A stretch of DNA of 64,000 bases. Source: Leptogorgia sarmentosa. Lineage: Eukaryota. Numbering within the stretch: the first letter of the stretch is position 1; each line of letters opens with the position of its first letter. The DNA lies in contig OZ210885.1 of the NCBI GenBank assembly GCA_964658305.1, positions 25,048,001 to 25,112,000 of the forward strand, written 5' to 3'. This document shows positions 981 to 46,183 of this stretch, piece by piece. The notes beneath the pieces are model-generated. The model was not told where the DNA came from and ran no database searches. It saw only the letters and a list, made by a program, of their open reading frames with translations. A program made the position numbers and the translations under genes.

Positions 981-3294
981 TCAATACTTAATGTTAGCGC
1001 CACGATTAGCAACAACTGCAATTAGCCTTCGATCCATTGAGGAAGTAAGTTTTGAAACCTCATCTGCCAATATCTTTTGCTGCGACTTGAATTTCATTCC
1101 AAAGTTCATCTTTCAATCTGAACTGCTTGGCATTTGCATTTGATTATGCTCCACAGATTCTCGATCGGATTAAGATCAGGTGAACATGGAGGCCATTCCA
1201 TGATTGTGGCATTTTTGACCAACAATTTTTTCAAGAAACCCAACGTCAAACGTGCAGAATGCAACGGTGCATTATCATGCATAAATATCATTTTCTTTCT
1301 AAATGACAAACTCTTCTTTTTGTACCAGGGTAGCAGAAACTCTTTCAAAAATGCTGTATAGGTTTCAGCAGTTATCTTCACCCCATCCTTTACTCTAAAC
1401 GGACCAACTATTTCATTATTGATGATGCCTGCCCAGAACATGACTCCACCACCACCTTGCTGACGTCTTAATCTCTGGGGAGGAGGCGACTGTGTGTCAT
1501 ACCAGCCTCTACTCCAACCATCTGGACCATCGAGAGTCGCTCTACATTCATCCGTGAATAATACGTTTTCAAAGTTAACTTTCATGTTATTTTCTACCCA
1601 CTTCATTCTTTTTTCACGATGGACACATTTCAAAGGTGGTCTAGCCAATGGTTTTCCACATTTGCTTATCCTTTTCAAGATATGACACCTTGTACTTTTA
1701 GGTGTATTGGGTAAACCAACAGACTCAAAAATGTCTCTGCTGGTTTGGAGGGGATTGCGGCGAATCTCTCTTTTATACGCTTGATCATTCGGGGACTGAC
1801 AATTGAGCTTCCCCTAGGTTTACCTTTGTCTGATCTCCCACTAAAGGATGCTGGGTTTGCAACAAATATTTTGATCGTTCTATGATCACGCTTAAGTGTT
1901 TTAGCTATTTGAAGGGTTGTTTGTTTACTATGAAGCCCAACAGGTGGGAAATTTGTCGGCGCTGACCAAAAAATCGCGGGCACATTGTGTTTACATTCCA
2001 AAACATGGCAGAAAGTTGGCAAACAACTGTTTTAGCTGACGAATGTTTGCTGTTTATTCAAATGATCTCTAACTTTAGTGCTTAATCTTTTAAAATCGAT
2101 CATGATTTCCTTGTTTTGCGATGATTTTTTTTGCAATCGAGTGCGTGGAAGAAGTGAATATGGCGACGTTAACATAGGAGCAATGAGTGGCAAACACCAT
2201 AAATGTCGAGATATGGCTTGTTTGAAACCGTAATCAACGAGGAAAATGTGATATGAGAATGAAATGTAAGTTGAAATTATTCTTTTTATTTCTCAAATTT
2301 CCCATAATTTGTTTGTTAGTGTAACTTGTGCGATTTATACTCGAAGTACTAGCTCGCGAAATTTGACGAAATTTTGAAAATTTGTGAAAATAGCTTGACT
2401 TTGAACTGTATTTTTGTAAAAATCGCCGGTGGCCTCAATTTCAAATATAGCTAAATGAAAAGAAACACTTCTTTGGCGTTTAGTGGTACCAAACCTATCA
2501 ACAGGAAAATAGGGCCTCATGATGCTTTAGTTAAGTGTTTGAGACCCACTTGCTTCACACATGTTGTGGTCTAATTCTGGCCAAGAATCAAAGGCCCAAA
2601 AGTGAATTTACATCATCAAATCTGCTTCGAGAAAGGTCTAGTTTAAAAATATAGCTTTTAATTTAGATTTCGTGACCATAATTTGGTTAGAAATGAAATA
2701 TTTTTGTATTTGATGAGATAGACAAAATTTTGTGTTTATTCAAGTCAGGCTTCAGTGTAATTATAATGATAACCGGCAATGAAATGAAGATATTTCAAAA
2801 ACTGGCGGTGGCCTCACGATGAAACATTCCAAAAATACTCTCCACTTCATGTATTTTCTTGTGATACTTTACTTGTAAGCGTCAAAATAGGGCCTTGAAC
2901 AGGCCCGGGGTTTGTATTTTAGCCTTCGGTAGAAGTGAAATCTCACGCCTCATCACAAGTTATTTTGCTCTGCCGTGATTTGTGCTCTGTCGCTGATATT
3001 TAAACCTTTACGACATAAATATTGTCATCCTCGTTAGGATACGAACATTTCACAGAAAATTCTAATTATTGCAGATTAACTTGTGACTGTAAACAGTGGG
3101 TAGAAGTATGCCATTCAGAATCGACACAAGATTTGTTTTGATTGTTCGTGAAATGTACATTTCTTCTTCCCGCAAAATACACGCACGTCTCGTGGGGATT
3201 TCCCGCGCATGCTCAGACAAATTTCCCACCTGTTATGAAGCCCCTGAATTATTGTTGATTTTTCATTCTCAGTCAAAGTGACTTTCTTTCCCAT
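981..3294 (-). pseudogene. Tc1-family transposase, DD37E, frameshifted and interrupted
   Basis: MGKKVTLTENEK start at 3294. The HTH region rejoins as IIQGLH|SKQTTLQIAK. Motifs VLFTDE, FMHDNAP and WPPCSPDLNPIEN, with 37 residues between the second D and E. Confidence 0.9.
1939..3234. mobile_element. Non-autonomous TIR element with 9-bp TSD (superfamily uncertain, Mutator-like TSD length)
   Basis: Perfect 19-bp TIR AACAGGTGGGAAATTTGTC. ATGAAGCCC is duplicated at 1930-1938 and 3235-3243. Confidence 0.88.
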
Positions 3295-5920
3295 ATTGCA
3301 TATAAAAACAGGACCTATTCTGAGCTTCGAACATTTAGAGCTGCTGTGATCTGTGATTATATGCGCAGGCATTAGTGTTTCCACTTTGCACGCAAAATGT
3401 CATAAATTTCCGTTCAATATTGCACCCCATATTGTGCAAAAATGCACTTGTATATAATTTTTGCACGCAGTGTAGAAGAGTCTCTCTGTCTTGGGATATC
3501 ATTTGGTGAAAGGAAAAGCCAACGTCTCAAATTAAACTTGTGGGCATGACCGGTGAATATAGCTCTAATAAAACCGGTTACTTTCGAAAAGACCGACAAG
3601 TTGGTTACAAGAAGTGAGTCGTAGTATACAAGCATGGACGATTTCGGATAACATGAGTAGAGAACAGTGGTTGCTATTATGAACTGGAAACACAAGCATT
3701 TCGTATTCTAGTGGATCTACAGATAAGACATTGGAAAGGACGCCGCTTTCTCGTGACAGGTTGTCCAACGCATTGTAAAGATATGTTGAGAAGATATGTA
3801 GTCGTGAACTGGGATTACTGATCCTTTGAAGAAAACTGTTAACTACGTCCCCACTTAACCAATTGCCACCTTTTAAGGTTTTTAGGTGATATGATGAGAT
3901 ATTATCACTTGCATAGAATAGTTCTTTTTTGTACGTCCATATCCGTTCTACGTCAGTCTGAGAACGTTTACCTAGTTGCCAAGAAGACGTTTGCTGTTCC
4001 TGCTGGGAATCCTCCATCATATATTCTTCAGGTGTTATTCCTTGATTTTCTTCTTGTTTAGTGTAGAAGCACATGTATACACTTCTCTTGAAATCATTTG
4101 ACTTCACTAAAGTTTCAGAATCCACAATGTTAACTGCTTCATCATCGTATACAAATGCAGTATGGTCGTTATTGAAAATGCAGCTAACAAAATGTCCAAA
4201 ACCAATTGTTGTACCCTTAGCTGCAAAATAGCTGCCCAAAGATTGAAATTTATGTCGTTCGCATCGAAATGTTCTCCAACAATCCCCCTTAGATTTATTA
4301 CCATGTCGAGGGTATTGCCAGTGCTAATTCACTATGATGCATGGCTGGTTTTCTTTCTGAACATTCATTGCAGACTTCGTCTTCTTCTGTTGAAAACCTG
4401 CCATACATCCTGGTCCAAAGAGATGTGGGGATGTATAATATCACATTCCACGTTGTACTGCTTTTCCCACTGAGTGAGTGGCATGTTGGTACTAAGCATC
4501 TGTTGAGCTCTAATGTCGTCAATTTGAAGAGTCGTTCCAGCTCCTCTTTCCCTTCCACTGGAAGCTGCTCGTTGATTCGATTCAAAAGCATGTTCAGGAA
4601 CTCACTTGAATCCTTATGTTCCAATTTATTTGGTGCCATACCACACGATTGGGTGATATTTAATGGTCCTTCCCGTAATTTGAGAGCTGCACTCTTATTT
4701 GGTGGACTCATTAGAAATTTAAGAGTACGAATCGTATCATAAATGAGCACTGTAGAGTACTGCTTAGCCAACAGTTAGACTCGATGTTTCGTATTCCTTT
4801 ATTAGGTTGGGTAATAATAGGATAGGAGAAATCAGCACACCGTTCTGCAATCTGACCAACAGCTTGATCGCCTTGGGAATACACAGAAATTATGGAAAAC
4901 TCGTCGTACAATTTGCTCACACATTCTCTATTCAAGTTCGGACTTGCCAACGTGAAAACCGAACGAAGTACAAAGGGAACAAACGTTTTGTAAATACAGT
5001 TCGTGCAGAAGTAGTTAGTTTCACTTAGTCTTGCAAGACCTGTACAAAAATCGATACACTTACAGTGGAATAATTCATTGCATAGGGAACTCGAAACAGC
5101 ACTAACATTTTCTTTCTGACGACATATGCAATGTGGAGTAGCGGTTAGATTTTCCGGAACGTACGACATTGGTATAGTATGTTTATCAGTGTCGTTGACA
5201 TTCTTTTGTTTCTGATACTTCGTCCACATTTTTAAAATTTCTTTTTTTATTTGATCATACCCATGTATTCGGCTAGAAACGTCAGGCCATACCAATCTTT
5301 CATATTCTTCAAAATTTGTTAAACCCAAGTCTCCAACTTTTCGTTCATTTTTCTGCGGCATAGACGACTTTTCGTTCATTTTTCTGCGGCATAGACGGGT
5401 TAAAATTAAGTTTTTACTGGTAGAATTCAAGTACCTACCCTTCTTATGTGCTGGTCGGCCGGGGCTGGGTTTTTGCCATTGCTCTTCCGGTATTGAAACA
5501 TTATTATCCATGAATTCCATTTCGTCTTCGTGATAATTTTTTGATAAATCCGATGAAGCATCGGGGCTGTCAGTGGGTTCTTTTGCGATAGTGGAGCATA
5601 GCGTCTGCAGTTTCATTTTGGTAGATTGTCTGATATTATTGTTTTCTTTGATCATTGTATCAACAAACAGTCTTTGTAATGCTAGATTATCTCTATAGTT
5701 TTCACCGATGAAGGTGTCCAATCGAAGATGTCTTTCCCTTTTGAATGAGCATTTTTTTTTAAGTTTGAAGAAGTCTTTTTTTTCTCCATTAGTTTGGTTG
5801 TCAGTGGAATAATTTCGAACAGCTGATGCTGCCAAATTAGTGGATGAAGAATAGTCAGCATTATGTCTTGATAAATCGCCAAGCAACAAATCCGACCAAA
5901 GAATGCAAGATGGAAGATAG

Positions 5921-9957: not shown

Positions 9958-12397
9958 TTTCAGAAACAAATATTTAAAACCTTTTGTTCTTACTCCAGGC
10001 ATGTAGATGGCCATCATAAACTAATCCGCTGGAGATTTGTTATTCACGGGGGGTTGATGGTTATAGCCGATGTATAGTGTACCTACGCTGCAGTACAAAT
10101 AACAGGGCAAATACCATGGCATCATTGTTTCTGCAAGCAGTCCATCGTTTTGGTCTACCATCTCGAGTCAGGTCTGACATGGGGACTGAGAATGTGGATA
10201 TAGCCAGATACATGCTGTATCACCCAGAAAGAGGACTAAACAGAGGGAGTATGATCACCGGGAGAAGCATTCACAACCAGAGAATAGAACGTCTATGGTT
10301 GGATGTGAAAATAATATGTCTCTTACTATCAAAACATCTTTTACTACCTGGAACAATGCGATCTTCTTAATCCTGATAGTGAACATGACTTGTTCATTTT
10401 GCATTATGCGTTCTTGCCACGTCTGTGAATGAATTGGTAAATGTTTGGAATAACCATCCCATGAGTACTACTGGAAATCGTTCCCCTTTACAACTATGGC
10501 ATTCAGCAGGGGCGGATCTAGGGTAAGTCAAATAAAGCACGCGACTTACGTAAAATTCGCCTAATTAATATTCAATAAATATTCAAGAAGAACCAGCACT
10601 CCAGTTACATTTTTCATCCTGTTCTCGCAAAATTAATATTCTCGACAAGCGGTCCAGATCAGAAACCACTGATCTCTATGGATAAAGCAAAATTTGCCAA
10701 TCCAGCCATTTGATTGGCTTATACACGTTTTGCTTTATGTTTGCGGGGGTCTGCTTAAATTTGACGTAATAGTGCAGAGACCTGATTGGTCGAAACCGAA
10801 TTTCGCTTTATTCTTCGCTGGGGTCTGCTTTATTCTCATTAATATGCGAGATTTTTGGCAATTGTGATTGGTCGGTTCGCGATCTACGTAGGGTCTGCTT
10901 TGTCTGCTTCGATTTTTGACTCATCAGCATGCGCGTTATTCGTTCTTTTACTGATCGTCCTGTTATTGAGAGTGTCCTCAAGTTGTAAGTGCGTATCAGT
11001 AAAAATTAAATCGAGCGGTGAATGCTTTTATTCAAAAATGATTGAATACGAGCACGTTAAAGCGGCATTTGAATCAAACGACGAAGTTATGATAAGAAAG
11101 GCGAACGAGAGCCTTCTGAAACAACTGAATGTCGCTTCGGATTCGGCGAAGACAACAGACGCGCTTCTGGCAGCTGTCCGTGACCCTGGCTGTACTCTCG
11201 CCAGAAATTTTGAGGCAGAGACGTACGTCCCATCTTTTGTCAGAAAACAAGGGAAAAAATGTACAGCAATAAGGTAAGAATCTGAATCTTTACTTGGAGC
11301 ATTAACAGTTGTAAATATATGAAATATCAAATATGTTATAGTTGACCTTTGAGAAAATTAGCATACGTTTGCGCGTCGGTGCAAAGGTCATATTAATTCA
11401 TTTCATTATTCATATTCATGTGCCTTAAACAGTTAAACTCTTCATATAATCTATAAACACGGTCTTATTTTGTATTTATATATTTAATAATATCAAATCT
11501 CTGATTGCTCAGACTGAGCTCAGTAAATTTTGCTTCTCTGGTATCGACCACATGTTTTATAACACGATGACATGATTCACATGAAATACAATCGGTCTTG
11601 CAGACCAGGTTGAGACTTGAGTCAGTCTGGTTGATGAGTTTTTTTCAGATTAGTTTATTTGGTCAATTATGTTATTATTAAGAGGCTACTACTACTAATA
11701 ATAGTTAATATCTACACTTTATAGTATAAATTAAATATGGAATTGCACTTTTTGATTAATTTTGAAATTTTTGTAGGTCAGAAGCTTCTGGTAATTGTTT
11801 GTATAGTGCTGTGTCATTGGTAATGGTAGGTGACAATACTTTAGTCAAAACTCTTCGAATTTTGACATCAATTGAGCTTTTCCTCCATCCAAATTTTTAT
11901 TGCCAGCATCCTTGCTTCTTGTCTCTTATAAAAGAGCATGGTGAGCACTTTGCAAAAAGTGTTGCTAACCTTTTACCACTGTCAGTCTCAGTTGAGTGCT
12001 TAGATACTAGGTTAACCAAAGGTTGCGGTCACACTAGCGCTAGAATTGTGCTTGCTTGGACTTAATCCACTTGAATCAATCAACATGTCAGCCTCCAAGC
12101 ACGCTTGATAGTGTGACCGCGCAAAACGCATAATCCGAGCTTGCTTGAAATTTGATACATTTTGCTTAAAACTACAAACGCACCGCAGCAAGCTTCAAGC
12201 ACGGTAGAGACGGTGACTGAACTGCGCTAGAATGCATATCTCAAGAGGATTATAAAGCGCGACCAATAGAAGCGCTCCCTGTCTAAAAGCATTAGAAAGC
12301 TCGCAATAAATTGTATAACGCGCCAAATTTCGAAACACAGACACAAATATTGCAGGCGAACACACGATCTTTCGTATAGTCTAGTTAGAACATCAAA

Positions 12398-13393
12398 ATG
12401 GATGAAACGCTGAACCGCACGCGTCCCAGTGAAAGTGCTGCTCCATCATATCCATACATCCAAGAGGCCTTTCCGAATCAATTCATTCCAAACTCCGTCT
12501 GGATGAATACACAAAATAATTCGCAGGCGTGTTATGGTGGCCCGTATTTTCCTTATGTTGCACAACCACCGAATATATCTACATCTCCTACGTCGCAAAC
12601 CCGTACAGAAAATGCTTCGCCCACCGCCACTAGTTCGACGAAATCAAGCAATGCGTACGATTCTGTCGATTCAGATCCCATCGCTCCGAACGTATGTGAA
12701 ATTGGCGCCAAAGGCAATACAACTACAAGATGGAGGGAAGAGCAAACCACCGTGTTAGTCCACGAATGGAAAGAGAGAATCGAGGAGTTAGAGAGCAGCA
12801 GGGCGACAGAAACATGGCGTCACATTGTCGACGCTGTGAACAAGGCTGGAACAGCGAAGACCGTGAAACAATGTAAAAACAAGATACGGAATTTAAAGCA
12901 GGCTTATAAAGAAGCTAAAGCGAACAATAACAGGACGGGGAGCTCACCTAAGAAAAGCCCATTCTTCGATACTTTCGATGATGTTCTTGGAACAAGGGCG
13001 GTGGTTACCATGCCCGGGGTAATCCAAAGTGATTCAGTGGATGAAACAGCAACGCTATCACACGAATCGGACGACGAAGAATCGGATGACTCGGACAGTA
13101 CTGAAAGTACATCCTCTCCAGAACAAAATGCCACAGCCAAACGAAAGAAACAACCTCAGAAGCCCGCAAGAAAACCGAAGAAACCTCGTGTCACTGCGGC
13201 GACGGCCATGATCGACTTGACGGAAAAATTAGTTGATATGCAACGATCGCAAGCTGAATTGATGGCTAAGGCACAATCACGCACAGAAGAACTCATGTTG
13301 AAAATGGAAATGGAGCAAAGAAAGCTGGATGAGGAATCAAGGCGAAGGGATCAAGAGTTCTTCTTGCGTATGGCAGAAATTATGAAAAAGTAG
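12398..13393 (+). CDS. Harbinger Myb/SANT-like (trihelix) DNA-binding protein, 331 aa
   Basis: RWREEQTTVLVHEW..W..I......KTVKQCKNKIRNLKQAYK...PFFDTFDDVLG, plus an acidic tract and a coiled-coil C-terminus. Confidence 0.9.
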   Translation: MDETLNRTRPSESAAPSYPYIQEAFPNQFIPNSVWMNTQNNSQACYGGPYFPYVAQPPNISTSPTSQTRTENASPTATSSTKSSNAYDSVDSDPIAPNVCEIGAKGNTTTRWREEQTTVLVHEWKERIEELESSRATETWRHIVDAVNKAGTAKTVKQCKNKIRNLKQAYKEAKANNNRTGSSPKKSPFFDTFDDVLGTRAVVTMPGVIQSDSVDETATLSHESDDEESDDSDSTESTSSPEQNATAKRKKQPQKPARKPKKPRVTAATAMIDLTEKLVDMQRSQAELMAKAQSRTEELMLKMEMEQRKLDEESRRRDQEFFLRMAEIMKK

Positions 13394-13653
13394 AACAGTA
13401 TATAGAACCTTTACAAATTATTCAAATAAGAACAATATTATTATAATATTATATATATATATATCATTTCTGTTTAATTACAATATCATTAAGTATATCA
13501 ATAATAAACTATGTAAAAATAGGATTTAGCAAAATTGAATTTTTAATACAAATATATATTCAACCTGAGTATCAATGTTAATTTGCCTCTACATGACATA
13601 AGTTTTATAACTACCCAATTTTTCTTTAAAATAACTTTGCAAAAATAGATAGT

Positions 13654-14937
13654 TCATCTTAGATACAGTTGGATTGATTGGCGAATTGTTTGGGCTACGG
13701 GATTTTGAACTATTCCCCTGTTTTGCACCTGCTCGTCGGCCTGCATCCCTTCTCTCTCCAATGCAATGATCTGTTGCAGAACTTCGTCGTCATCAAATTC
13801 TTCTCCTGCACTCTGACAGAAATTGTGCAAAATACAGCAGGTGAGAATAACTTCTGGAATGTTGCAAAATTTGTTATCGAGGCATTTCAGAAGAATTCTC
13901 CATCTAGCCTTAAGTATTCCAAATGCTCGTTCGACAGTGGAGCGGGCAGACGACAAAGTTTTGTTGTAGTTCCTTTGAGAACGGTTGAGAATAACGTTTA
14001 TTGGATAAGGTTTTAAAAGCCATGGTAGCAGAGGATATGCTCCGTCTCCGAGCAAAAGTGGACGGATCGTAACCCCATTTAATGAAATGACTGGCTCTTT
14101 AAGAACATCGCCATTCTCTGCCTTCGTAAAAATGTTGCTCGCGCGTAATATCCGAGCGTCGTGCATACTACCTGGATATCCGATAGCAGTGTCCAAGAAC
14201 ATCAGATTTTCTCCAACCACAGCTTGCATAGTTACACTATAGCGGTGGTGGCGGTCAAAATAATCAAATGGTTCATCGGGCGCAATGATTTCGATGTGCG
14301 TACCATCAATAGCTCCAACAGCTTGTGGAATTTTGCATTCATCCTGGAAAAGGGCAATTGCCCTGGCTGTTTCATCGCGATTGGTAGGGAATTTGATGTA
14401 ATTGCCCACGAAACGATTCAACGCTTTGCAAAATTCTTTTGTGATTGTCACGCAAGATGATTTTCCAACATCGAAGTGGGTCGCGATGGTCCGAAAGCTT
14501 GCACCTCCAGCCAGACGCCATAAAGCAATAGCCACTCGCTTTTCAGGAGGAATGGCATCTCGAAAAACAGTGTTTCTCTTGCATATTTCCGGCCTGACCA
14601 TTTCCACTAGTCGCAAGAATGTGGTTTTCTGCATGCGAAAATGTTCCTTCCAGTAACGGGATTGACGCTCGTCTTGGAGGATTACTTCAAACCATCCAAC
14701 TCTCGGTCTAGGAATTACCCAAAACTCACGATCGAGCCTAGGGTAGATCACTTTGGCAACTGCGAGAAGAAGCAATGTTGTTGTCGTCTGAAGCATCTGC
14801 AAACGTCGCATGTTTTGATCCATTTGATGAAGCAGGAGGTGCATTCGTCGCCGTCTGCGATTTAGCGCCCTTCGTTTTTTAGCATTGCGAAGATGCTGAT
14901 ACATAAAGTGAAGTAAAAGCAAAGAATCTCTCTCCAT
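13654..14937 (-). CDS. Harbinger DDE transposase (HARBI1-like), 427 aa
   Basis: FRM...F, GAIDGTHI, GYPGSMHDARI, LLGDGAYPL, RSTVERAFGILKARW and CCILHNFC. Confidence 0.95.
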   Translation of the reverse strand: MERDSLLLLHFMYQHLRNAKKRRALNRRRRRMHLLLHQMDQNMRRLQMLQTTTTLLLLAVAKVIYPRLDREFWVIPRPRVGWFEVILQDERQSRYWKEHFRMQKTTFLRLVEMVRPEICKRNTVFRDAIPPEKRVAIALWRLAGGASFRTIATHFDVGKSSCVTITKEFCKALNRFVGNYIKFPTNRDETARAIALFQDECKIPQAVGAIDGTHIEIIAPDEPFDYFDRHHRYSVTMQAVVGENLMFLDTAIGYPGSMHDARILRASNIFTKAENGDVLKEPVISLNGVTIRPLLLGDGAYPLLPWLLKPYPINVILNRSQRNYNKTLSSARSTVERAFGILKARWRILLKCLDNKFCNIPEVILTCCILHNFCQSAGEEFDDDEVLQQIIALEREGMQADEQVQNRGIVQNPVAQTIRQSIQLYLR

Positions 14938-17900
14938 TTACAATTTATAATATGAAAGTGCTCCCAAATGTGAATGGCGCGTAATTTGAACTTGCCAAAA
15001 ATACCATAGACACTTTATCTGTCATTACAATCTTAAGCAAGCATAATTTCTTTTTCAGTGTGACCGCGACGTGCTTGCTCAACATTCTAGCACTTGCTTG
15101 AATGACGTCACAAGCAAGCACGGTAATCCTTTGCTAATCCGCAAGCACAAGCGCTAGTGTGACCGCAACCAAAGATAGCTTGGTCAAACAGGAAGCTATT
15201 TTAAATTGCACTGACAAAAAGTGGTCATCATTTTTATGTGTTCTTGGTCTTTCTTCAGTTTTACATAGAAACATTAATACTTATTACCCAGATTGTGGGG
15301 AATCCAGAAATAAACTGTTGTTTAATCGGTTTGTTCAACCAAGGGATGAACAAACACATAATGTAACTGGTAATGACATCCATATTTTATTTTGTCGTGA
15401 TGGCACTATTAAACCTGGGGAGGTCTTTCAACCCAACCATTTTGTTCCTCTTCTTTTTCACCATATTTCACAGAAACGCAAAGCTGTTGTAGATGTGAAG
15501 GGTTCTGCAGTGACAAAGAAGCCAAAATCTCTTCCATCCTTTTCTGAAAAAGTTGCCAAAAAATCTAAACCTGATGCCAATATTTTAAATTTTTTTACTG
15601 TATCTGAAACCCCTATAGTTCATCAAACCCCTATTATGAAGAAGGCCCCTAATGAGAGCTTTACTTCTGCAGCTCAACTTGCTGCTCATGAAGTTGAAAC
15701 AACTGTGCCAACCAGTTCAGGTTTGGCTCCAACAAAAGTCTCTAGTAGCAAAATCTCCATTCCTGCTAAGAATGTGAAAGATACCAGTAATAAACCACTT
15801 AAACCACCTATTAATCATAACTATGATATAGCCTTTTATGGGGAATTGGTTAAAGGTATGGATGATTCAGAAATTTGCAAACTTATAAAGAATGTATTTA
15901 AGCCAGATGAGAGTTATGTTTTCCCTAAGACCAATGGTAGAAGCTTCAGATATCAGTGGTTAAAAATTCATAGTTGGCTTTGTTATTCACCATCAAAAGA
16001 TGGTGCATTTTGTTTGTCATGTGTTCTTTTTGGGCATCGCTTTCCTGACAAAGCCCACAAAATAAGTAGACTTTTTTCACAGCCATTTTCCTACTGGACT
16101 AATGCTACCAATACTTTTAACCGCCATGCTGGGCGTGGAACTGGAGGTGATTTGGGCTTGCATGCATGTACTTTCCCCCTTTTGACTTCATTACTTGCTA
16201 TGATGTCTGGAGCCACTGTCCCCAATATAGGAATCATGATCAATGAAAACCTTCAAAAGGAGGTTGAGGAAAACAGGAAAAAACTTGCTCCAATTGTTGA
16301 CACAATAATTTATTGTAGTCGTTCTGGTTTGCCTTTGCGTGGTCATCGTGACGATTCCAAATATCACCCAGAGGTCGGGGGTTACTCCAATGGGGGTGTT
16401 GGAAATTTCATTGAAGCCCTTAATTTCAGAGTTCGAGGAGGAGATAAAGTTTTAGAAGACCACTTGAGGACTTGTGGGAAAAATAGATCGTATATTTCCA
16501 AGACAAGCCAAAATAAATTAATTGTTTGTTGTGGTGATGTTATTACTGATAGGCTTGTTAATGAGGTTAAGGAAAGTAAGTTTTACACGATTCTAGCAGA
16601 TGAAGCTGCTGATTCATCACACAAAGAACAGATGTCACTTGTCTTGCGTTTTGTTGATTCTGAAATGAATGTCAGAGAGGAGTTTATTTCATTTTTGCAG
16701 TGTAAATGGGGTTTAAGTGGGGCTGACCTTTCAAAACTTATTTTAGAAGCACTTGATAATTTAGCACTGCCTATTGAAAATTGCAGGGGACAGGGGTATG
16801 ATGGTGCTGGTGCTGTCGCTGGCCATATAAATGGTTTGGCTGCACATATATTAAGACTCAATCCCAAAGCACTTTATACTCATTGTTTTAGTCATAGGTT
16901 GAATTTGTCTGTATGTGATTCTTTGGGGATAGTTGAGATAAAGAACATGCTTAAGCACGTAAATGAAGTTTCACATTTTATTAGAATTTCTCAGACCCGT
17001 AGCATGCCTTTTGAACAGAATATAAAAGAACATAGCTCTGATACTGAGTCCAGAAAGTCTAAACTGGTAGATGTTTGCAGGACCAGATGGGTTGAACGGG
17101 TTGAAGGTTTGAACACCTTTCAGGAGCTTTTTGTACCACTGTATCACACTCTTGATGACATGGTTAATCAACGGGGAGATGGATTCAACCCTTCCCTTTC
17201 TAGTGATGCTCTTACTCATTTACACCGTATAGCTAAGTTTGATTTTATTGTAGTTTTAGTCATTACCAGACATGTTCTTGATATAACTTTACCTGTGACA
17301 CAGTTATTGCAAGGGAAAAGTATAGACATAATGGATGGCACACACTTAATAAATAGTTTAAAGAATGAATTAATATTAATAAGGAATTCTGTTGACACAT
17401 ATCATGATATGTGGTATGAGGAAGCCTTGCAGTTGGCAAGCAAAGTTGATGTTGAAGAGTCTAAGTTGAGGACGCTCGCTGGTAGACAAACGACCAGGGC
17501 AAATCCCCCTTTCCAATCTGTTTCTGAACATTTTAAACGGACCATAACTATACCACTTATTGACCATTTTAATTCCTCCTTAAAGGCACGATTTGATCTA
17601 GACAGTGTCAATGTTTATAAAGGGTTGTGTTATACCAGAAAAAATGTTATCTTTAAGTAGAAAAGGTATTGACTGGAAAGAAGAGTTCAAACCTGTTGCT
17701 TCTTTTTACTATGATGACTTGCCCAACCCTTTAGCATTAGATGCCGAGCTCTCGTTGTGGCACACGTATTGGAAATCGTATACTGGACCATGTCCTTCTA
17801 ACATAACTGCTACCTTGAAATCGGTCAACTTTGTGAGTTTTGAGAACATTAAAGTTATACTACGTATTTTGGGAACACTCCCTATTACCTCTTGCGAGTG

Positions 17901-18334
17901 CGAGAGATCTATCTCGGCTCTTAGGACTCTTAAAGACTATAAAAGAACCACTATGGTTGAGGAACGCCTTAATGTCTGGCTATGATGAAGATTCATCAGG
18001 AAATCGTCCCTGAAATAGGAAAAGTTATTGACAAGTTTTCCACTGGGAACACTAGATTGAAATTCAGTTGAATTTCAATATAATATTACTCTATTCCCAA
18101 ATGTGCCATAAAGTTTTTTATCATGATTACCTGAATATTTTAATTTGAATTAATAGTACATAGCATATTAGCATACACTTTCTTTTCTCTTTACGCACAA
18201 TACCATTTAAATTAGCAAATTATATATTAGCCTTGAATAAATGAACATCTCATATAGTAGGCATTAACACCTTGGTTGTCAAACAAAGTTTCAATGGTGT
18301 GCAAGTGAACGCACAAATTTTAGTGAAAATGTGG

Positions 18335-18660
18335 GGGGTAAAGGGTTAGAACAGACTGGGACGACATGCGAAAGTGAGCAGTTGCATGTCTAAAAAATGT
18401 CCCAAACAGTCACCCATTCTAACCAAACTCCTTTACCGATTTGGCAAAGGTGTGAAGGCGAGTATCTGGCGCCTTAAAACCAGATTGCTCTTTCGTGGGT
18501 CGGGGTAAAGGGTTAGAACAGACAGGGACGATATGCAAAATTGAGCAGTTGCATGTCTAAAAAATGTCCCAAACAGTCACCCATTCTAACCAAACTCCTT
18601 TACCGATATGGCAAAGGTGTGAAGGCGAGTATCTGGCGCCTTAAAACCAGTTCGCTCTTT
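18335..18660. repeat. Two-copy tandem repeat, about 167-bp unit, in the hAT 3' region
   Basis: GGGGTAAAGGGTTAGAACAG... starts at 18335 and again at 18502. Confidence 0.9.
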
Positions 18661-18678
18661 TTTATAGGCCTTGAAAAA

Positions 18679-18783
18679 GGCTGTCCATGTCCGGATGCAT
18701 ACGCGTACGTTATCCATAATTGATGGAGGATTGTACATGTATCCTAGACATGCTGATGAGCCCTGAAATCGGGCGAAACAGTC
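18679..18783 (+). ncRNA. Type III hammerhead ribozyme
   Basis: Stem III GGCUGU/ACAGUC, cleavage triplet GUC (C18685), stem I CAUGUC/GACAUG with a long paired extension, core CUGAUGA (18753-18759), stem II GCCC/GGGC, then GAAA. Confidence 0.85.
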
Positions 18784-19264
18784 AAAATACATTTGCAGAC
18801 ACAGATCGCAGACAAGCTTTGAAAAAATCGTAAATGTCACGCCTTAATGCAGGCCTTTATGAAATTCAAAGCCACGCCCACCGAAAAATTTGAAATGCCA
18901 CGCCCACTAATGGCTCTGAAAAACTTTTTGACTTACGTGTGAAAAATCCTAGATCCGCCCCTGGCATTCAGGGATAAATGCAGTAACCAACTCCGACTAT
19001 CGTGCTGTAGAGAGTGTTTTTGAATCACAGGAAGACTGGGTCCAGTATGGGATTGGGGGTGGACCCCCACCCAGTTGCGATACAGATAATAATGTGCAAG
19101 TGCCCGAGGTCAACTTTGAACCATCCCAAGAACAATTTCAGGAGTTGCAAGATCACATCAACCCATTGTTAGATGATGGTAACCATGGTATTAATCTATA
19201 TGTAGCTGCAATTATGGTACTTCAGCCTGAACATCAGAACTAAATACACTATATGCATACTATA

Positions 19265-20460: not shown

Positions 20461-23322
20461 CTATAGTTCATCAGTGTCTTCTAAACACAGACCACAGATG
20501 TATTGTTCCATATTGTCAGCATCTTCCTGTGTAACACTCACACATGCACCATGAAACCATTCGTCGCAAGAGTCGCATTGTATCATAAGACCATCCTCTC
20601 CCTTCCTGCAAACGCAGTAAACATCAGCTTCGTCAGAATGATAATCTTTTCTCATAGATTTGCTTCTCTTCTTTTTATTTCTCTCTCTTCTAGCGAACTT
20701 TGCTACGTAATGCTGAACACATATTTCGGCATCTTCTCGTGACAACAAATGAGTCTTCGCTAAATTATCTATATCTTCTGGTAAAATATCCTTGTTCGCT
20801 TGAACAAACTTCTCAATTTGAGCTCTTGGTGGTATCTTCTGAGAAGCATCAGGACCCTTTTCTTTTACCCATTCAATGTGCTGCTCAGGTTTTAAGTAAT
20901 GCCCAGTGCAATTGTTACTACATTTCTTGCATGCGACACCCCATTTTCTTTCAGGGTCCGGAATAGGTAGAGGGAGAAACGACAAAGCCGGACCACCCGG
21001 ATACCATGTGGGTTCTGCAGACGGTTTTCCTTTTAGGCATTCAGGGTGTGGACATTCTGGACTGTAACATGGTTTAAGCATGAATAGATAATTTGTTGGT
21101 AACTCTGGGATCATATGCCTCTTGCGTAGTTCCCAAATTTGTGAAAAATATTGATATTCATCTGGGTGTAATTCTTTTAGGGCTGCTTTTGACTTCTTTG
21201 AACCTCTAAGAAATGTTAAAAGGTTTGACCGCCGATCACAATACAATTTACTGACTTCATCTTTTGCTCCTTTTACAAGGTGGATCTTTTTACCAAAACA
21301 TGGTGTACCAGACACGGTACTAATATACACTTCCGTCGCCGCGTTCAGATTCTTCTCCAGCTTTTCCTCACAGAGATGACCATCGTCATCCAGGTTTGAC
21401 CCATGAATTGTCGAAGGTATAAATACGTTAGAATGCCCAAGAGCTAAACACCCATTTTGGAGTTCAACTTTATTTAAGTAGCTTCTGCCGCTATACCTAG
21501 CTGACACAACTGTACATAATGATCCTTGTTGTAAATGCCTTTCAGTCCATTGAAATTGAACCTCTTGAAGGCTGGGGCTTTCATCCATTGCGCCATCTAC
21601 CCGTATGCACTCAACTTTCTTTCCTTCAAATAATGACTTATACTCAGGAAGTGAGGCAACCATTTTAAGATCCGCAGAATGTTGACCTGGATGTTTGGGA
21701 ATTATCTTATGCGGCTTGACCACACCGATACAAACTACAGGTGTATTCTCCGTCTCCATCAAGAGGTACGAGGTTGTTTGAAGCACTGAGGAATATCGGT
21801 TAACAAAGTCTGTCCGTGTTGTGAGTTCGGGTGTTAATTTAGTTTGCAAAACCGAATGCTGCTTGTGGGTGAATGTGCTGTCTAGGCGAAACCCAGAAGC
21901 ATCGTCACGATTGATAACAATTTTATCCAAACCATTCTTCAGCTGAATATAATCCAGGATCTGGTACATTGAGCAACTCCACTTCGCGTCCACATTCAAT
22001 TTGACATTAAAACCTTTCCTGGCTCGTCTGGAGACTATCTGTGCTGCTCCCCAGTACCTTTTGCTCGAAAGCTTTCTTTTGTTGTGCACACTACAAAGTT
22101 GTACAACTGTTCCATATCCAAATTTAGTGCTATATTTTTCTTCCAAGTACTCTTTGATTCTGCTGTATGTTAATTTGGGACCGCGTTTAACATTTCCGCT
22201 AAATGTGAGTAAGCCTGTTCGCCGCCATGAATCTGCCCCTATTCGTCTTTCGATAGCAAACTCTTCAATTGCCTTTCCGATATCTGGGTATTTCTGAACA
22301 GTCTTGCTTACCCTTGCGGGTTTGCGTCTCTGCAACAAACATTTTTTAGCCACAAGTTTGGAGATTCGTCGATTCTTCTGACGGCGAAAAATTGCACGCT
22401 GTTTCTTAATCTTTGCTTTTACTTCTTCACTATACAAAGGCAAGTCCTTAATAGCAACCCAGTCTTCTGGATTATCAGATTCTGAATCTGTTACAACGCT
22501 CTTCTCAGAATCACTATCACTTGACAATACAGTGATGTTAATGTCACTGTTATCATTGGAATCAGCTTCACTTCCTGTTTCTGTTTCACTAAAGACAATT
22601 CCTAACTCTTGAAGAGACAGGCCTTCTCTAATGGACAAAACTTCATCTACGGCATCTCGTATGTCACGGTACTGTTGTACGGCTTCTGCAACTGCTTCTC
22701 GCTCCTTAACAAGACTTGAAATTCCAAGTTCTTTCTTTGCCCTGGTAGCTGAAAAATTAGTTGTTGCAGCCACTCTGATAAGTTTTTTATCTTTTTCACT
22801 GGAAGCTAGTTCACAGAGTATCTTCAGATTTTCCCTTGAAATACCCTTTTGCATCAGTTCCGTCGGAACCAACATATTTAGAAACTTTACAAATCTTGCG
22901 TAGTTCATATCCGGCCTGTTTTCTGCGACATAAAGTTTGTCTTTAATTCTGAACACAGCAACTGGTAGTTGCATTAATCGCCGTACAGCCTTGTCAGATT
23001 TGTATTCGCAGTCAAAACACTTCCGAAAGCTTTCTGAAAGCGGAACTAAACCATGTTTCGATAGATACTTGGCAAACGTTATCAATGATGAACACTGCTG
23101 GCAACTCAACTGATTATGTATTTTCTGACAGTACATTTCTCGTGCAGTTACAAATTCTTCTAACGAAATATCACTAATATGGGACAAATATAAATCATTA
23201 CTTTTTTTTACACCATCCGTCAAGTTTCTTCTTATGTATTTTGTATATCTTTCGGACAGTTCATTTAATCCTGTAGCCGTCAAGTTCTTAAAACATGCTT
23301 TGGCTACAGGTTCGTTTAAACT
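20461..23322 (-). CDS. Zator-like DDE transposase ORF2 with C-terminal PHD finger (about 950 codons, no early ATG)
   Basis: INRDDASG, RVDGAMDESP and SGRSYLNKVELQN resemble Zator DD/VDGGPDENP/GRSAFNRVE motifs. C-terminal VYCVCR..MIQCDSCDEWFHGACV..YICGLC. Confidence 0.8.
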   Translation of the reverse strand, partial: SLNEPVAKACFKNLTATGLNELSERYTKYIRRNLTDGVKKSNDLYLSHISDISLEEFVTAREMYCQKIHNQLSCQQCSSLITFAKYLSKHGLVPLSESFRKCFDCEYKSDKAVRRLMQLPVAVFRIKDKLYVAENRPDMNYARFVKFLNMLVPTELMQKGISRENLKILCELASSEKDKKLIRVAATTNFSATRAKKELGISSLVKEREAVAEAVQQYRDIRDAVDEVLSIREGLSLQELGIVFSETETGSEADSNDNSDINITVLSSDSDSEKSVVTDSESDNPEDWVAIKDLPLYSEEVKAKIKKQRAIFRRQKNRRISKLVAKKCLLQRRKPARVSKTVQKYPDIGKAIEEFAIERRIGADSWRRTGLLTFSGNVKRGPKLTYSRIKEYLEEKYSTKFGYGTVVQLCSVHNKRKLSSKRYWGAAQIVSRRARKGFNVKLNVDAKWSCSMYQILDYIQLKNGLDKIVINRDDASGFRLDSTFTHKQHSVLQTKLTPELTTRTDFVNRYSSVLQTTSYLLMETENTPVVCIGVVKPHKIIPKHPGQHSADLKMVASLPEYKSLFEGKKVECIRVDGAMDESPSLQEVQFQWTERHLQQGSLCTVVSARYSGRSYLNKVELQNGCLALGHSNVFIPSTIHGSNLDDDGHLCEEKLEKNLNAATEVYISTVSGTPCFGKKIHLVKGAKDEVSKLYCDRRSNLLTFLRGSKKSKAALKELHPDEYQYFSQIWELRKRHMIPELPTNYLFMLKPCYSPECPHPECLKGKPSAEPTWYPGGPALSFLPLPIPDPERKWGVACKKCSNNCTGHYLKPEQHIEWVKEKGPDASQKIPPRAQIEKFVQANKDILPEDIDNLAKTHLLSREDAEICVQHYVAKFARRERNKKKRSKSMRKDYHSDEADVYCVCRKGEDGLMIQCDSCDEWFHGACVSVTQEDADNMEQYICGLCLEDTDEL

Positions 23323-25627
23323 AAAAAAGGGTGTTGGTCAGTGTTGTCCTCCGTTGCTAATGTAGAAACATTGGATAAACTGGGTGGATGCACTTGCGAT
23401 TCACTACTTTCCTTTGCATCTGCTGACTTCTGATTTGCTATGTCCTGTTCGCTAACAGAACCTAGACTAGTATTTGAATTAAATTTGCTGCCAGTAGAAT
23501 TAACCATATTTTCTAAGACTTTGTGTGGAACTGAATCTGCTCTTATCAACCTTGGAACAAATTCATTATCTGATGAAATATCGACATCGGTATCAGCTTC
23601 TGCAGACACGCTGGAAGAATTTTCTCTGTGTGGAAACGACTTTCTCTTTTTCTTTTTCAGACGATATTCACTAGATCTAGCTTCTTTAGACTGAAGCTTT
23701 TGGAGCTCTAACTCTAACTTCCTCTTTTTAGTATTTTCTTCCTGGATACTTTTCGTTATTTCAGTTGCCTCCAAAAATCTCTCGGTATTCGAATACTTTC
23801 CTTTCTGTTGCTGCAAGAATTTGATCGCTTCTGTTTGACTTGAAATATTTTCCGTGAGCTCAGTAATTCTTGCTTCTCTTACTTCCTGACGTACATACTT
23901 CCTCTTTTGCTTTTCTTCACGACAGCCAAATATTTGGGATCTGGAAGATTTCTTGCTGTAATTGTAACCATCATTGTGCACTTTTTCCCTGGCGAATGAT
24001 AGCAATTTCGCTCTGTTCATGAGGAGGGAACCATCATTCTTACAAAGCTGGTAACTGGCCATGTTTACAGCCTCTTGATACTTTGTAAGTGGTTTTCCGC
24101 TACCACCGTATATTCTACTTTTATCACACAAATCTGACTCTGGTATATTCAAAACTGTTGCAACTTTGGTAGTGTTGTGGTCAACCTAGAGATAAATATG
24201 TAAACATCTCAATATTGTACCAAAAATTAGGTATGCATAACTTGGTAAGAAATGTATCAACAGGTATGTATGTATGTAGAGTAATGTGCTCCCCAGGCAG
24301 TACAATTAAGCAGATGTCATGTACTGTAAAATACCTACTATAAAAATATTACCCACCTTTGTTCTTGGCCCAATTCTAAGTTGGCCACCACTTATCACCA
24401 GGGTTGCTTGACCACTAGCCTTATCTGACCCTGTTTAATTAAATACAATATGAAAGTAGAAATTGTGGACATTGTTAATTATATATTGTCACAACTTACA
24501 TGTCATTTCTTAAATTGTGGGTTCTAACACCAGTAAATAATATTACATGGTAGATGATGTAAGGCAGAAAGGAGGCCATGACAAAGGCTGGTTGCATGAT
24601 ATTATTGGATCTTGTTATTGTCAAGTTCGTTTAGTAGCCATAACTGTAAGTCTTTTAAAACAATAAGGAACTCCATTTGGTGCAAAATGCTGGTGAAAAA
24701 ATCTGAGTAGTACATTTTCCCCACAGAAGCTAGGCTTTTACAGTAGGTTTACAAGTAGAGCAAAACTTACCTACAGTGCTTGTGTTTAAAGAATTTGAAT
24801 TGTCTTCTGTTGAGCTGGACTCAGCACTTGCATGGACCAAATCAGGTGTGAAACGACTAATCTTGTCACTGTACTGTATTAAAACAATGCACTGGTCTAT
24901 ACATGTATGCCTACGGACCTATTTAACTACTTTTTTAATCCAGGCACAGTGAATTTATCATAAGACAAGTGGAAGTAAGATTTCTTGAAAATTGATAAAA
25001 AGAAACTATTTATAGAGTTGACGTATTATTACATTGTTTATATATTTAATAGAAACGGATAAATTTACCTGGACACTTCCACAATATTGCTTGTCTTGAC
25101 GAATGTTCACTTTTACTTTATCTTTGTTTCGTAAGTTATTAATATCTACGTCTATATATTCTTCCCAGTCCTTATCATAACGTTGAAAACAAACGGTAGA
25201 GTATTCGTCCAGTTTCACGTTGAACAGCTCTACAACAATTTGAGCCTTGTCTTTGCTTTTTAGTGATGCATCAAGATATAAAACCTTCTTCATTTCATTG
25301 TATTCCATTAATACGCGATCCTTAAAAATGGAAACGAAAATTACTGTATATAAAGTCATAACAAATTATAATAAAAGTAAAGCCAGAGCTTCAAATATTC
25401 AAACCAATCAACGGTCGAGTATTCACAAACACAGGGAAATATTTATATAAATATTCATATATTAAGAATAGTAGTTTTAATTTTAATATGCGCAATGTAT
25501 TAATTCAGCTTTTAGTATATCTATATTAAAATACACAAATTGAAATATACGTTGGTATTTCTTATGAAGTTCTTACCTGAACAATATCTGTGACAATATC
25601 ATCACTTGCCGAGTACAAATCCGCCAT
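23316..25627 (-). CDS. Five-exon ORF1 of the Zator-like element, 449 aa, unknown function (coiled-coil/basic)
   Basis: Exons 25627-25577, 25320-25069, 24873-24771, 24430-24357 and 24185-23316. All introns are GT-AG, phases are consistent and there are no stops. Confidence 0.75.
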
Positions 25628-25747: not shown

Positions 25748-27249
25748 AATCCTGACAGATCGCAAAATAAACAACATGCAAAATCCCATCATTTCTCCGA
25801 GGTTATTGGGCAGCCGCTTACGAAGATCCTATATTTTCCCCACATGTTGGGCAAAATTTTCTTTCAATGTCTCCACAAAGTTACTAACTCACCCTACTAT
25901 GGCCCGGGGTCCCCCCCCTCGGGGAAGCCGATGACACACGCATTAACTTACATGGGAAATCCCCAATGTAAAATGCATTAAAATGCAGACTGACTTTTCA
26001 TTGCATTTCATATGTTCTGTTTCCTTTTTCCAAAAATGTCTGTTCATGAACAATAACTTAAAAGGAGTGTGTTTTTTTACATTTTCCCAAAACCTTGCTT
26101 TGCAAAAGAAATAGCCTTATCAAAGTTTGTTTTAAAGCTCTCATAGTTAGAATGCGCGACTGGGATATACATAACCATAGGACAAGTATTTGCTTCAGGC
26201 AACAATTTGCCAGTTGAATCTTCAAGATAATCCACACTTAGCTTTTGTGTAGCTGCTGAAGGTAGTGAAGGATAGTTTGTCCAAAACTGTACCAGGTCAT
26301 ACAGATTCTCCTCATTACCATCTTTGTCTACAAACAAATTCAGGAAAACTCGGATCTTTTTATTGAAATCAAACACAAAATGCAAGAATTACATGAAGTT
26401 TGAAGATGGCTCTCTCAAGCCAATCAAATTTGTGTAACATCTGTTTTCTGTATTTGATGTCATGAAAAAGGTCGATAGGTGTATGAATTTATTTCTGTAT
26501 TGGAGCATGTTCACCAAACTCACCTCTTCCATCCAGTTCTTCAATGTGCTGATCAAGCCACATTTGGGCCTGTCTGCAGTTTTCATCTGTTGATTGAGAA
26601 TACTCCAAATGCCTTTTTGACTCACAGATACTCCGCAGGAATATTTGTGAGTCTATGCTATCGGTCTAGCTCTTCATTAGTATTCTATTGTTTTATAATC
26701 CTCCAGCCTGCTTTGCGTGCTTGATAAGCATAAAACCTGGCAGACCAGTTTGAAAATTCTCTTGATGTTCCTCGTGTTTTGGCGTTCAGAATAAAATACG
26801 GTGAGTTTTTTATATGTGCATACATTAAATTGCATTTGTCAATGTGCTTAATTAAACAGTGCATTGTTTACATGACCTTTGAATATTCTTGTCGGTTGAA
26901 TCGGATTTTGTTCTGACTTGGAGTTTTGCATTCACGTGTGCTGACGAACTCGTAATTTCTTTGTTTTTATGTAAAAAAGATCAAGTCATACTTCAAGAAG
27001 TTCAACCAGGAAGCACGGTAAATTATAAGATATAATATTAATTGCAGCAGTGATTTTGTTTACTATTGAAGCAAAGACCAAAAAGTGAGAGACAAAGTTG
27101 ACGACCTTAAATTGTATTCCGTAATTTGTATCCGTATCCATTTGCCTAAACATGAGTGATTTGAATATTGTTTGTGTTGCAGCTGGTGGTTGGAATGTTT
27201 TCCTACCTGTTGGTAATGAGTTAAGTTATGAGACAATGAGTAACAGTTT

Positions 27250-30200
27250 GATGTTGGTGGGGATGGTGACTGTTTTTTTAAAGCTGTTTCACACCAATTG
27301 TATAACAGTCCTGATTATCACCAAAATGTTAGAAAAGCAGGTATTGATTATATTTGTGCACACCCAGAACAGTTTATCGAAAGCATTGCAGGCAAGTCAT
27401 GGTGTGAGTATATAATTGATATGTCACATCAAGGCACTTGGTGTGATGCACTTATGGTACAAGCTGTTGCTGATACTTTAAATTGTATAATTGACGTTAC
27501 TGAGTCAGCTGTTAATTTCAGTGAGACAGCTATTGTTCATCCTACAAATAGCATACAAAATCCAAATATTATATATATAGGTCATTTGGGTGAATTTCAT
27601 TATGTATCAACGATAAGTATAGTGAGACCTGAAAAAAAACTTGACCGTGAAAAGCTGAGTAAGTCAAGATGGCCAGGCATGAGAAAAGATGTGAGTTTGC
27701 AACATTCGCAAAATACAAAAAGTACCTTTCCACCTCTGAACTGTTACATAACAGAAAAGAAAACAAAAAAGAGGCAGTTGAATACCAAGGTGAAGAGTAG
27801 CATTGAGAAGAGACAACGAGTTGTTGCTAACAATAAGTTTATCGAATCTTTTCACAATAGCATTGAATGTGGCCCTGAATATATTTGTACTTGTTGCGAC
27901 CAGTTGTGGTATAGGTCATCAGTACAGCTTTGCAATAGTGGCAAATATAACTTGTGTAGCCCAAACATGATAAAGATGTGTATTACTGATGTCAAAAGTG
28001 TGAATAACAATGAGTGGATTTGCAATAGTTGCCATTCAAATTTGCTGGCCGGTAAATTATCTGTGTTTTCAAAAGCAAACAACATGAGTTTTCCTGAAAT
28101 TCTCAATTTGACATCATTAGAAGAAAGAATAATATCACCACATATTCCTTTTATGCAGTTGTGAGAACTTCCCAGAGGAGGTCAACTGAGTATACATGGA
28201 AATGTTGTTAATGTTCTAGCTGATGTGAATACAACAGTTAATTGCTTACCAAGGCCCTTGAATGAATTACAAACCATTCCGTTAAAACTCAAACGACGTA
28301 TTGCATACAAACATCATTATTTGTTGGAAAATATAAGACCATTGAAGGTTTTAAAAGCAGCATTTGGTTATGGTTAAGTATTTGGTTGAGACTAGTCAGT
28401 TATTTAAAGATGAAGGTATTGATATTGATACTTCCTACCTTGATACATGCAACCAATATAGCAATGAAAGTCACCCATTGCAGTTAAATATCAATGAAGC
28501 ACAGTATCAAGAATTTGGGCAGTTGTGTGACGAAACTGATCTGTGGTCAGAAGTTGAAGAACAACCATCAGGGGTGATGGATACTTTGTTGGTTGAACCT
28601 GATGTTACTCAGGATTATGATAAAATCCTCAGTTTTGCACCAGGTGAAGGAAACAGACCTCTTGGGTTGTTTGTTGACCAAAACTCGGAGCACTTATCAT
28701 TCCCAAACTATTTTTTGTGGAAAGAAAAGATCCGATGAATGCCAAGTTCCTGTCCAATATAGTACAATTTGCAAATGGGAGTTGCGTAGTCGTGATCGTA
28801 GAGCTGCTGAATCAGTTCCCAATATTTTTTACAACCTGAAAAAACTCCAGATCAAGGACAGTGCTGACAGTTCGAAAGTGCAAAACAAAAGGTAAAAATA
28901 GGTACACAAAGTGTACATGTATCTGCGCCCATGTAGCTTGATGATCAAGTCTTATTTGTTTTCAGCTTTTCGATACACGCATCTTATCTGTCCCTAATAC
29001 GCGATCTGATAAAATGATTTACTGCTAGGGAATAGGCGAATAGCGCAAATACTAATTCCTTTCAAGACGTGAGGTTGTGTGGAGACGTATTCAATACTTG
29101 ATATAAGCTTTCGTGACTATCTCGCATTCCGGAATTCCCGCGATCATATATCAAATTGCATAAGGAATTGAAACTTGACGACATATGATATCGCATTTTA
29201 TGTTATTGCGTCTTTAAAATAGACACAGCGCTTTGCAATTGTTTGTGAAAAATGTGGCTCTCTAAAAACCAAATTTACCCTTTTCAATACCGTATCATAA
29301 TAATATATTTATATACAATATATTCCGTCCATTCATGCGGATTTGCGTAGACGCTAAAGTGTATGTATGATCGGTATGCGCATTGCGCGTAGGTTAAAAA
29401 CAGAATACTTGAAACTATATATGATTTCGTTTGTTTTGTCTCGCGTTTAATAAACGCACAAACCCGTTATATTACAAGCTACGAAATCTATTTTCCTGGG
29501 ATTGAATGTTTCAACCATTCCGTATGGCGAAGCGTCAAAATATAGTGGATATTCCGTGATCACAATGACACCGCGGGCAGTCCAAACATGTACAGTGTGT
29601 GAGTGCGACAGTACCGACACGCTAAAGTATCGCGCTAAAGTATCGTATGGAAAATATACGCGCTATTGTGTCAAGACATTAAACTCTTTCATAACCTTAA
29701 ATATTCGCTGTGTTCAATTGTATTAATTGCGTCATGATATTTTTGCTTTGATGATCTAAATTGCATAGCGAACGCGAACCTCTTTAATTAATATCTTTAA
29801 AAGCAATGCCAATGTCTGCAATTTGCGTCATGATATTTTTGCGTATAAATTTCCTTAGTATAAATAGTGTTCTAAACGGCGTAAACGCTCATAAATTAAC
29901 CTCTATTTCACTGAAGTCACTCGTCGCTGCGAACATTATATTTTCTTTTTATCTGGATATTCATGCGAAACAAAATCCACAATCAAACACATCACCACTC
30001 TTTAGCTCGCGCCTATATCAGCTGCCATTTTGTAATATTTAGCCCGCAAGAACTGCTTTGCACACCTTCACGTTGGTTCCCTTAAATTTGTGGGTGGGCT
30101 CAGTGAGAATTACATCATCTCAATGTTACGTTGTCGCCTATTGGCTAAATTTAACTAACGAATTCGCTGATTGGCTGCAAGTTAACAGCTAACAACTAAC

Positions 30201-46063: not shown

Positions 46064-46183
46064 GTCTACGACCATACCAGTAGGAAAATACCGGTTCTCG
46101 TCTGATCACCGAAGTTAATCCTAGGCAGGTGAAGTTAGTACTTGGATGGGTGACCACCTGGGAATACTTTGTGTCGTAGACTT
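46064..46183 (+). rRNA. 5S rRNA variant or pseudogene (one of the best-preserved copies, 120 nt)
   Basis: Full length, with terminal helix GTCTACGAC/GTCGTAGAC and recognisable internal control region sequence. No immediate oligo-T terminator. Confidence 0.7.

Follow-up and report, generated by a model that had tools for sequence, protein, structure and literature searches.

In this study we analysed a stretch of 64,000 nucleotides of the Leptogorgia sarmentosa genome (hereafter the window), in which a preliminary description had reported a type III hammerhead ribozyme within the 3' end of a hAT DNA transposon. This locus raises the question of whether the ribozyme belongs to the transposon, and what a self-cleaving RNA could do for an element that moves as DNA. 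As far as the available text of the sources goes, hammerheads of animal retrozymes and Penelope-like elements are type I motifs, with more than 6000 of them in A. millepora, and type III motifs occur mostly in plants (PMC7229834, PMC7761336, PMC6155905, bioRxiv 10.64898/2026.07.22.740005). The animal type III cases described there are Clec2, delta-like RNAs, termites and dipterans (PMC6155905, PMC7936874).

The hammerhead motif at positions 18679-18783 of the forward strand is real. When checked pair by pair, it comprises a stem III of 6 bp (18679-18684/18778-18783, including one G-U), a GUC triplet at 18683-18685, a stem I of 6 bp (18686-18691/18747-18752) that continues into a 50-nt hairpin, the core CUGAUGA at 18753-18759, a stem II of 4 bp with a 7-nt loop (18760-18763/18771-18774) and GAAA at 18775-18778. 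All elements of a type III core (CUGANGA, GAAA and a NUH site) are thus present, and the topology, with stems I and II closed and stem III open (6, 4 and 6 bp), is that of type III; cleavage is predicted between C18685 and C18686. In these respects the preliminary description was right, and the extensions of stem I that it named are present in the minimum free energy (MFE) structure of 18670-18790 (121 nt, -38.3 kcal/mol, z -3.59), which none of 200 shuffled sequences equalled in stability. With a looser descriptor, one motif was found in 200 Markov-simulated 64-kb windows searched on both strands.

The suggested search with Rfam hammerhead models had a mixed outcome. In a search of 1.2 kb, RF00008 (Hammerhead_3) matched 18728-18784 with a score of 36.6 bits and E 5.8e-6, which is below its gathering score of 48.5, and a scan of the whole 64-kb window at gathering thresholds did not list the hammerhead. 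The alignment agrees with the window in the consensus hexamer of loop II, and it pairs a second, compact 5' arm that had been overlooked, giving an alternative fold at 18729-18783 (forward strand) with a GUA site and a cut after 18735. The score refers to this compact fold; the RF00008 model cannot accommodate the long stem I. As a conserved form the compact fold was rejected: its MFE is 14.5 kcal/mol worse and its 5' arm is absent from a related transposon, L125 (described below), which does have the 5' arm of the extended fold. Therefore, the extended fold is taken as the right one.

Folding of the motif together with its natural upstream bases gave a less favourable picture. In the secondary-structure model the hammerhead fold lies 4.4-5.4 kcal/mol above the free ensemble, and in a sibling variant rebuilt from contigs of sequencing runs 6.4-7.5 kcal/mol above it, again for secondary structure only. 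The probability of stem III is near 0 when the upstream sequence is folded along, so that the ribozyme is not the favoured structure in this context. Stem III is predicted to be outcompeted jointly by a 6-bp hairpin at 18667-18682 (forward strand), which overlaps its 5' strand, and by a core-pairing strand at 18651-18657. The latter is complementary to the 3' strand of stem II and a portion of GAAA, and could be an anti-ribozyme switch or a product of chance. Because the folding model omits pseudoknots, Mg and tertiary contacts, the competing fold lowers the odds of cleavage and does not remove them, and we regard self-cleavage of the window copy in its own context as reasonably probable.

The host element is a broken hAT copy at 10507-18963 on the forward strand. 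It is bounded by perfect 16-bp terminal inverted repeats (TIRs; left 10507-10522, for which 0.06 matches are expected by chance at up to three mismatches; right 18948-18963) and by identical 8-bp target site duplications (TSDs; 10499-10506 and 18964-18971). The main part of its transposase extends over 15171-18070 (forward strand; stop codon 18068-18070) and was matched by tblastn with the transposase query P0003 at 15168-17630, 17470-17973 and 17976-18065, with frameshifts near 17625 and 17973; contigs of other copies have extra letters at both places. By eye, upstream exons may lie at 11038-11273 and 11777-12020. The protein has DUF4371 and the C-terminal dimerisation domain Dimer_Tnp_hAT (PF14291, PF05699), and of 7989 scored entries 491 were homologues at E<=1e-50, the named ones from cnidarians (octocorals and hydrozoans). 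The copy is dead in the window, since a Harbinger/PIF element interrupts the gene at 12021-15170 in addition to the two frameshifts. This nested element itself looks complete, with perfect 21-bp TIRs, a 3-bp target duplication (AAA) and two ORFs, Myb/SANT on the forward and DDE_Tnp_4 on the reverse strand.

The proposed location of the hammerhead in the hAT end is supported by these TIRs, TSDs and domains: the motif begins 609 nt past the transposase stop and ends 180 nt before the end of the element. From the stop to the right TIR a single AATAAA/ATTAAA is present, a predicted poly(A) signal at 18236-18241 (forward strand), and neither the window element nor L125 has such a signal between ribozyme and TIR. 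The signal precedes both the ribozyme, by about 440 nt, and an adjoining tandem repeat, and the ribozyme is therefore predicted to lie outside the ordinary mRNA.

Elsewhere the window is rich in transposons. Further DNA transposons are indicated by a DDE_3-like ORF (1106-1813, reverse strand) and a Transposase_21-like ORF (55511-57100, forward strand), and long adjacent ORFs at 20461-24185 (reverse strand) with an NAB NCD2 domain and a PHD finger are possibly transposon-borne. Two OTU-like ORFs (27244-28164 and 62075-62956) were detected, and behind the second lie seven tandem copies of a 90-bp unit (63246-63887). Rfam further gave 11 hits of 44-96 bits to 5S rRNA-like copies, ten of them diverged and irregularly spaced (220-400 bp) in a cluster at 45392-47881 and one alone at 39877-40003; these may represent a 5S-derived repeat or a decaying array.

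The 167-bp tandem repeat had been recorded as lying directly before the ribozyme. Its presence was confirmed (18335-18660, two copies, 95% identity), but it is not a mere neighbour: its two copies represent a conserved module of hairpin and pseudoknot that accompanies the ribozyme. The first copy (18335-18501, z -2.3) contains a long hairpin at 18335-18431, a small hairpin and a predicted H-type pseudoknot at 18455-18485; the second (18502-18660) arose by tandem duplication, and both are on the forward strand. The pseudoknot next to the ribozyme, read from pairing only, is predicted at 18622-18650 on the same strand (stem 1 18622-18627/18637-18642, stem 2 18633-18636/18647-18650) and ends 29 nt upstream of the hammerhead. 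The module has no match in Rfam.

Is this arrangement a property of the transposon? The transposase scan provided 84 loci (the best 80 of 226 confirmed metagenome loci and four GTDB loci, 545,165 bases). L124 and L125, which are one locus in two assemblies, encode a transposase with 60-71% protein identity to that of the window. In L125 the order after the stop is the same as in the window, with the long hairpin and predicted pseudoknot module in a single copy (1759-1913), a type III hammerhead at about 3259-3339 and the TIR, which ends at 3484. The pseudoknot lies a few nucleotides upstream of the ribozyme when a later LTR insertion is disregarded. That insertion, a small LTR element at 1914-3250, sits exactly in the pseudoknot linker and has LTRs of about 140 bp that are alike at 125 of 139 positions, a decayed internal part and, by eye, PBS- and PPT-like stretches.

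Fourfold sites differ between the window and L124/L125 at 97 of 170 and 19 of 34 positions, about 1.0 substitution per site. Identity in the UTR (0.52-0.55) and the spacer (0.43) is at the level of shuffled sequence (0.55 and 0.44), and far above that level in the module (113/155), the 5' arm of the hammerhead (11/12), the core half (30/37) and the conserved subterminal stretch with the right TIR (34/42; 18922-18963, forward strand). Stem II is identical in both elements. With regard to a possible tertiary contact of loop I with loop II, both contain a UA in the 3' strand of stem I, at 6 bp from the core. Double-sided changes are found in stem I (pair 6, C-G to U-A) and in the outermost pair of stem III (G-C to U-A); in the module, 8-9 pairs of the apical hairpin are kept despite different letters, and the pseudoknot is kept with a G-C to G-U change. 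As the ends of a DNA transposon are kept only if they help it to spread, this conserved pairing points to a role at the RNA level that may be under selection.

A different explanation of the same conservation is that the letters are binding sites for the transposase or another factor, and that the RNA is an inactive relic which never folds as a ribozyme. The competing hairpin and anti-core strand predicted above would fit a relic, as would the mutated core of L125 (CUGAUUA, with one mismatch in stem III) and the stem II variants (18772) in some run contigs. However, every core position is intact in the window, the changes in stems I and III are compensatory, and the G-U pairs work on the sense strand only, so that we consider a relic or a DNA-level element quite improbable. 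The decay of the L125 core would fit a copy that has been dead since the LTR insertion, which is not proof of earlier activity.

How far the hammerhead extends among hATs is indicated by the remaining loci, with this single relative (L124/L125) as the deep comparison. Among the 84 (best 80 of 226 metagenome loci plus four GTDB loci), a strict hammerhead descriptor matched none and a relaxed one matched a single locus, and a model of the module matched only the window, L124 and L125. The other 82 loci, many of which are cut short, have neither hammerhead nor module; ten of them, representing about five distinct elements whose identity to P0003 is 34-41%, extend to a clear right TIR and lack a hammerhead. 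L126 (65%) stops 335 nt past the transposase and is uninformative in this respect. A search with Rfam at E<=5 in 20 of the 84 loci detected no ribozyme, and as the degenerate L125 motif was missed too, Rfam is insensitive on these loci. Since the hammerhead is absent from the other loci, including those that reach a TIR, it is a feature of a hAT subclade, and the wider hAT group works without it and the module. We regard the hammerhead as likely to be an integral, conserved part of the right end of the transposon in this subclade.

In pattern searches, the exact core had no match in the collections of viral, metagenome and GTDB sequences. Viral contigs gave no match to the patterns of pseudoknot and hairpin, and none to the transposase. 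A loose core pattern matched at least 123 viral loci, so the letters of stem II are generic; in one viral contig (L017) the hammerhead core is matched four times, at intervals of 420-530 bp. Eukaryote-type hAT transposase sequences from contigs of two bacterial MAGs (L204-L207) are likely host contamination; one of these loci, L205, adjoins long GT microsatellites.

Related copies were also compared in the contigs of 6 of the 10 sequencing runs that contain part of 17700-18963 (16 runs listed). X8 gave no contig on 18600-18830, which is not taken as evidence. Contigs of runs under two species labels contain hammerhead and TIR together, and also the pseudoknot and core in another family. One contig, from a different species label, spans 18593-18964 unbroken with 17 differences, and in two more the core is joined to the TIR-proximal stretch via other sequence (joints 18783-18926 and 18784-18928). 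The motif was thus present in other copies of the family, as the preliminary description had proposed to check. Its suggestion of a captured fragment, in the sense of a recent and neutral insert, is disfavoured because siblings and the distant relative carry the motif; by this comparison the hammerhead does not appear to be a recent stray insert.

A related possibility is that pseudoknot and hammerhead form a mobile RNA cassette of their own, similar to a retrozyme or a Penelope-like element, which entered several repeat families and is hitch-hiking in the hAT. Consistent with this, a second repeat family shares solely 18621-18650 and 18745-18780 with the window, 55 nt apart in a 1941-nt contig whose upstream and downstream sequences are unrelated, and in a third 18618-18826 is shared and the sequence upstream of it differs. 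In X9 the core is followed by several distinct flanking sequences, and its summed depth, which is not a copy number, is much higher than that of the hAT-linked copy; animal hammerheads, according to the accessible literature, are in addition mostly found in retroelements. On the other hand, order and TIR distance are the same in lineages about one substitution per site apart, conserved segments alternate with unalignable ones, and a single type III motif beside a repeat unit that lacks a ribozyme is unlike the type I tandem retrozymes. We therefore find an independent mobile cassette unlikely.

Plant LTR retrozymes and viroid-like RNAs (RF00008; PMC7761336, PMC7229834, in the text available) share topology, core and short stem II with the window motif, whereas this motif is single, lacks an LTR pair, has a 50-nt stem I hairpin and resides in an animal class II hAT; self-blastn of the element revealed no second copy, and thus no pair of LTRs with a type III hammerhead as in the plant type. 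Metazoan non-LTR retrozymes and Penelope-like elements (PMC7229834, bioRxiv 10.64898/2026.07.22.740005, bioRxiv 10.1101/2021.04.23.441226) have in common with it an animal genome, a transposable element and an adjoining tandem repeat of similar size. Their motifs, as presented in the consulted parts of these sources, are type I or minimal and occur once per repeat unit or in retroelement pseudo-LTRs. The window, in contrast, has one full core, of type III and outside the repeat, and neither an RT/GIY-YIG ORF nor a pseudo-LTR with a minimal type I motif, the mark of Penelope-like elements, was found among the five element ORFs scanned.

The position behind the poly(A) signal also allows another function, namely a plain fail-safe terminator of read-through transcription. 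The distance of about 440 nt past the sole AATAAA would suit this role, and a hammerhead located behind a poly(A) signal cuts co-transcriptionally in human cells, its downstream product being described as degraded 5'-3' before termination (PMC2288634, in its accessible text). However, the same source describes that an added ribozyme left the transcription profile unchanged, and a 5'-OH, structured end is presented as a poor Rat1 substrate that might short-circuit the torpedo (PMC2702688, likewise as available). Moreover, a terminator does not account for the 150-nt module with its covarying stems that is conserved on the 5' side of the cut, and we regard this function as unlikely. Avoidance of snap-back dsRNA from the TIRs was dropped as a role, since a 16-bp TIR is short for that.

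The pseudoknot followed by the ribozyme is the tightest linkage in all three sequence contexts, so that the 5' cleavage product would carry the knot at its 3' end. This placement favours a 3'-end-forming cassette, in which a ribozyme cut and a protective knot serve the element's own transcripts, over the terminator, the mobile cassette and the relic, and we give this model a probability of roughly one in two. In the proposed 3'-end-forming cassette, polymerase would run past the AATAAA at 18236, sense transcripts of the hAT would be cut after C18685, leaving a poly(A)-free RNA end, and the pseudoknot would likely shield the new 3' end. The predicted stable 5' product might be a longer transposase transcript or a piece released by cuts at the poly(A) site and at the ribozyme, of about 430 nt, or about 270 nt without the duplication. 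As a side effect, read-through RNA would be severed about 280 nt before host DNA.

Atypical animal type III hammerheads whose long helix I is made up of a short stem, an internal loop and an extra hairpin, as found here, are known from delta-like RNAs of toad and termite and from the genomes of termites and dipterans (PMC7936874). Their stem II has 6 bp, and their loops 1 and 2 form a pseudoknot (GCCR/YGGC), whereas the window motif has a 4-bp stem II without GCCR/YGGC and its pseudoknot is a separate upstream unit; the available text of that paper reports no link to transposons. The discontinuous Clec2 hammerhead of mammalian 3' UTRs (PMC6155905, in the text available) is likewise of type III with a long helix I and lies at the 3' end of a protein-coding unit; however, it belongs to a host gene and has a helix I insert of 150-1500 nt, and the window motif follows the poly(A) signal that is predicted for the transposase. 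In the rice hAT TWIFB1, a structured RNA (dENE) is located behind the transposase gene, as in the window. According to the accessible part of PMC13541005 this ENE binds the poly(A) tail and has no catalytic activity, in contrast to the motif studied here, and it sets a precedent for hATs that keep RNA-level 3' elements.

It is tempting to speculate, and more tentatively than for the model above, that a cnidarian hAT clade adopted the hammerhead and pseudoknot to make a stable, poly(A)-free RNA that serves transposition, with the cassette common to several transposon families. For the most part, self-cleaving ribozymes in eukaryotic genomes have been explained through the RNA step of retroelements. 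Transposons that move by cut and paste lack this step, and a ribozyme kept under apparent selection therefore points to an unrecognised job at the RNA level, which may be ending, stabilising or shielding the transcripts of the element. In the accessible literature, outside subscription journals and supplements, no hammerhead or other self-cleaving ribozyme is reported in a DNA transposon. In summary, this study adds a cnidarian type III hammerhead and an undescribed structured module, and, if the proposed function is true, the hammerhead would be the first ribozyme to function as a component of a class II element.
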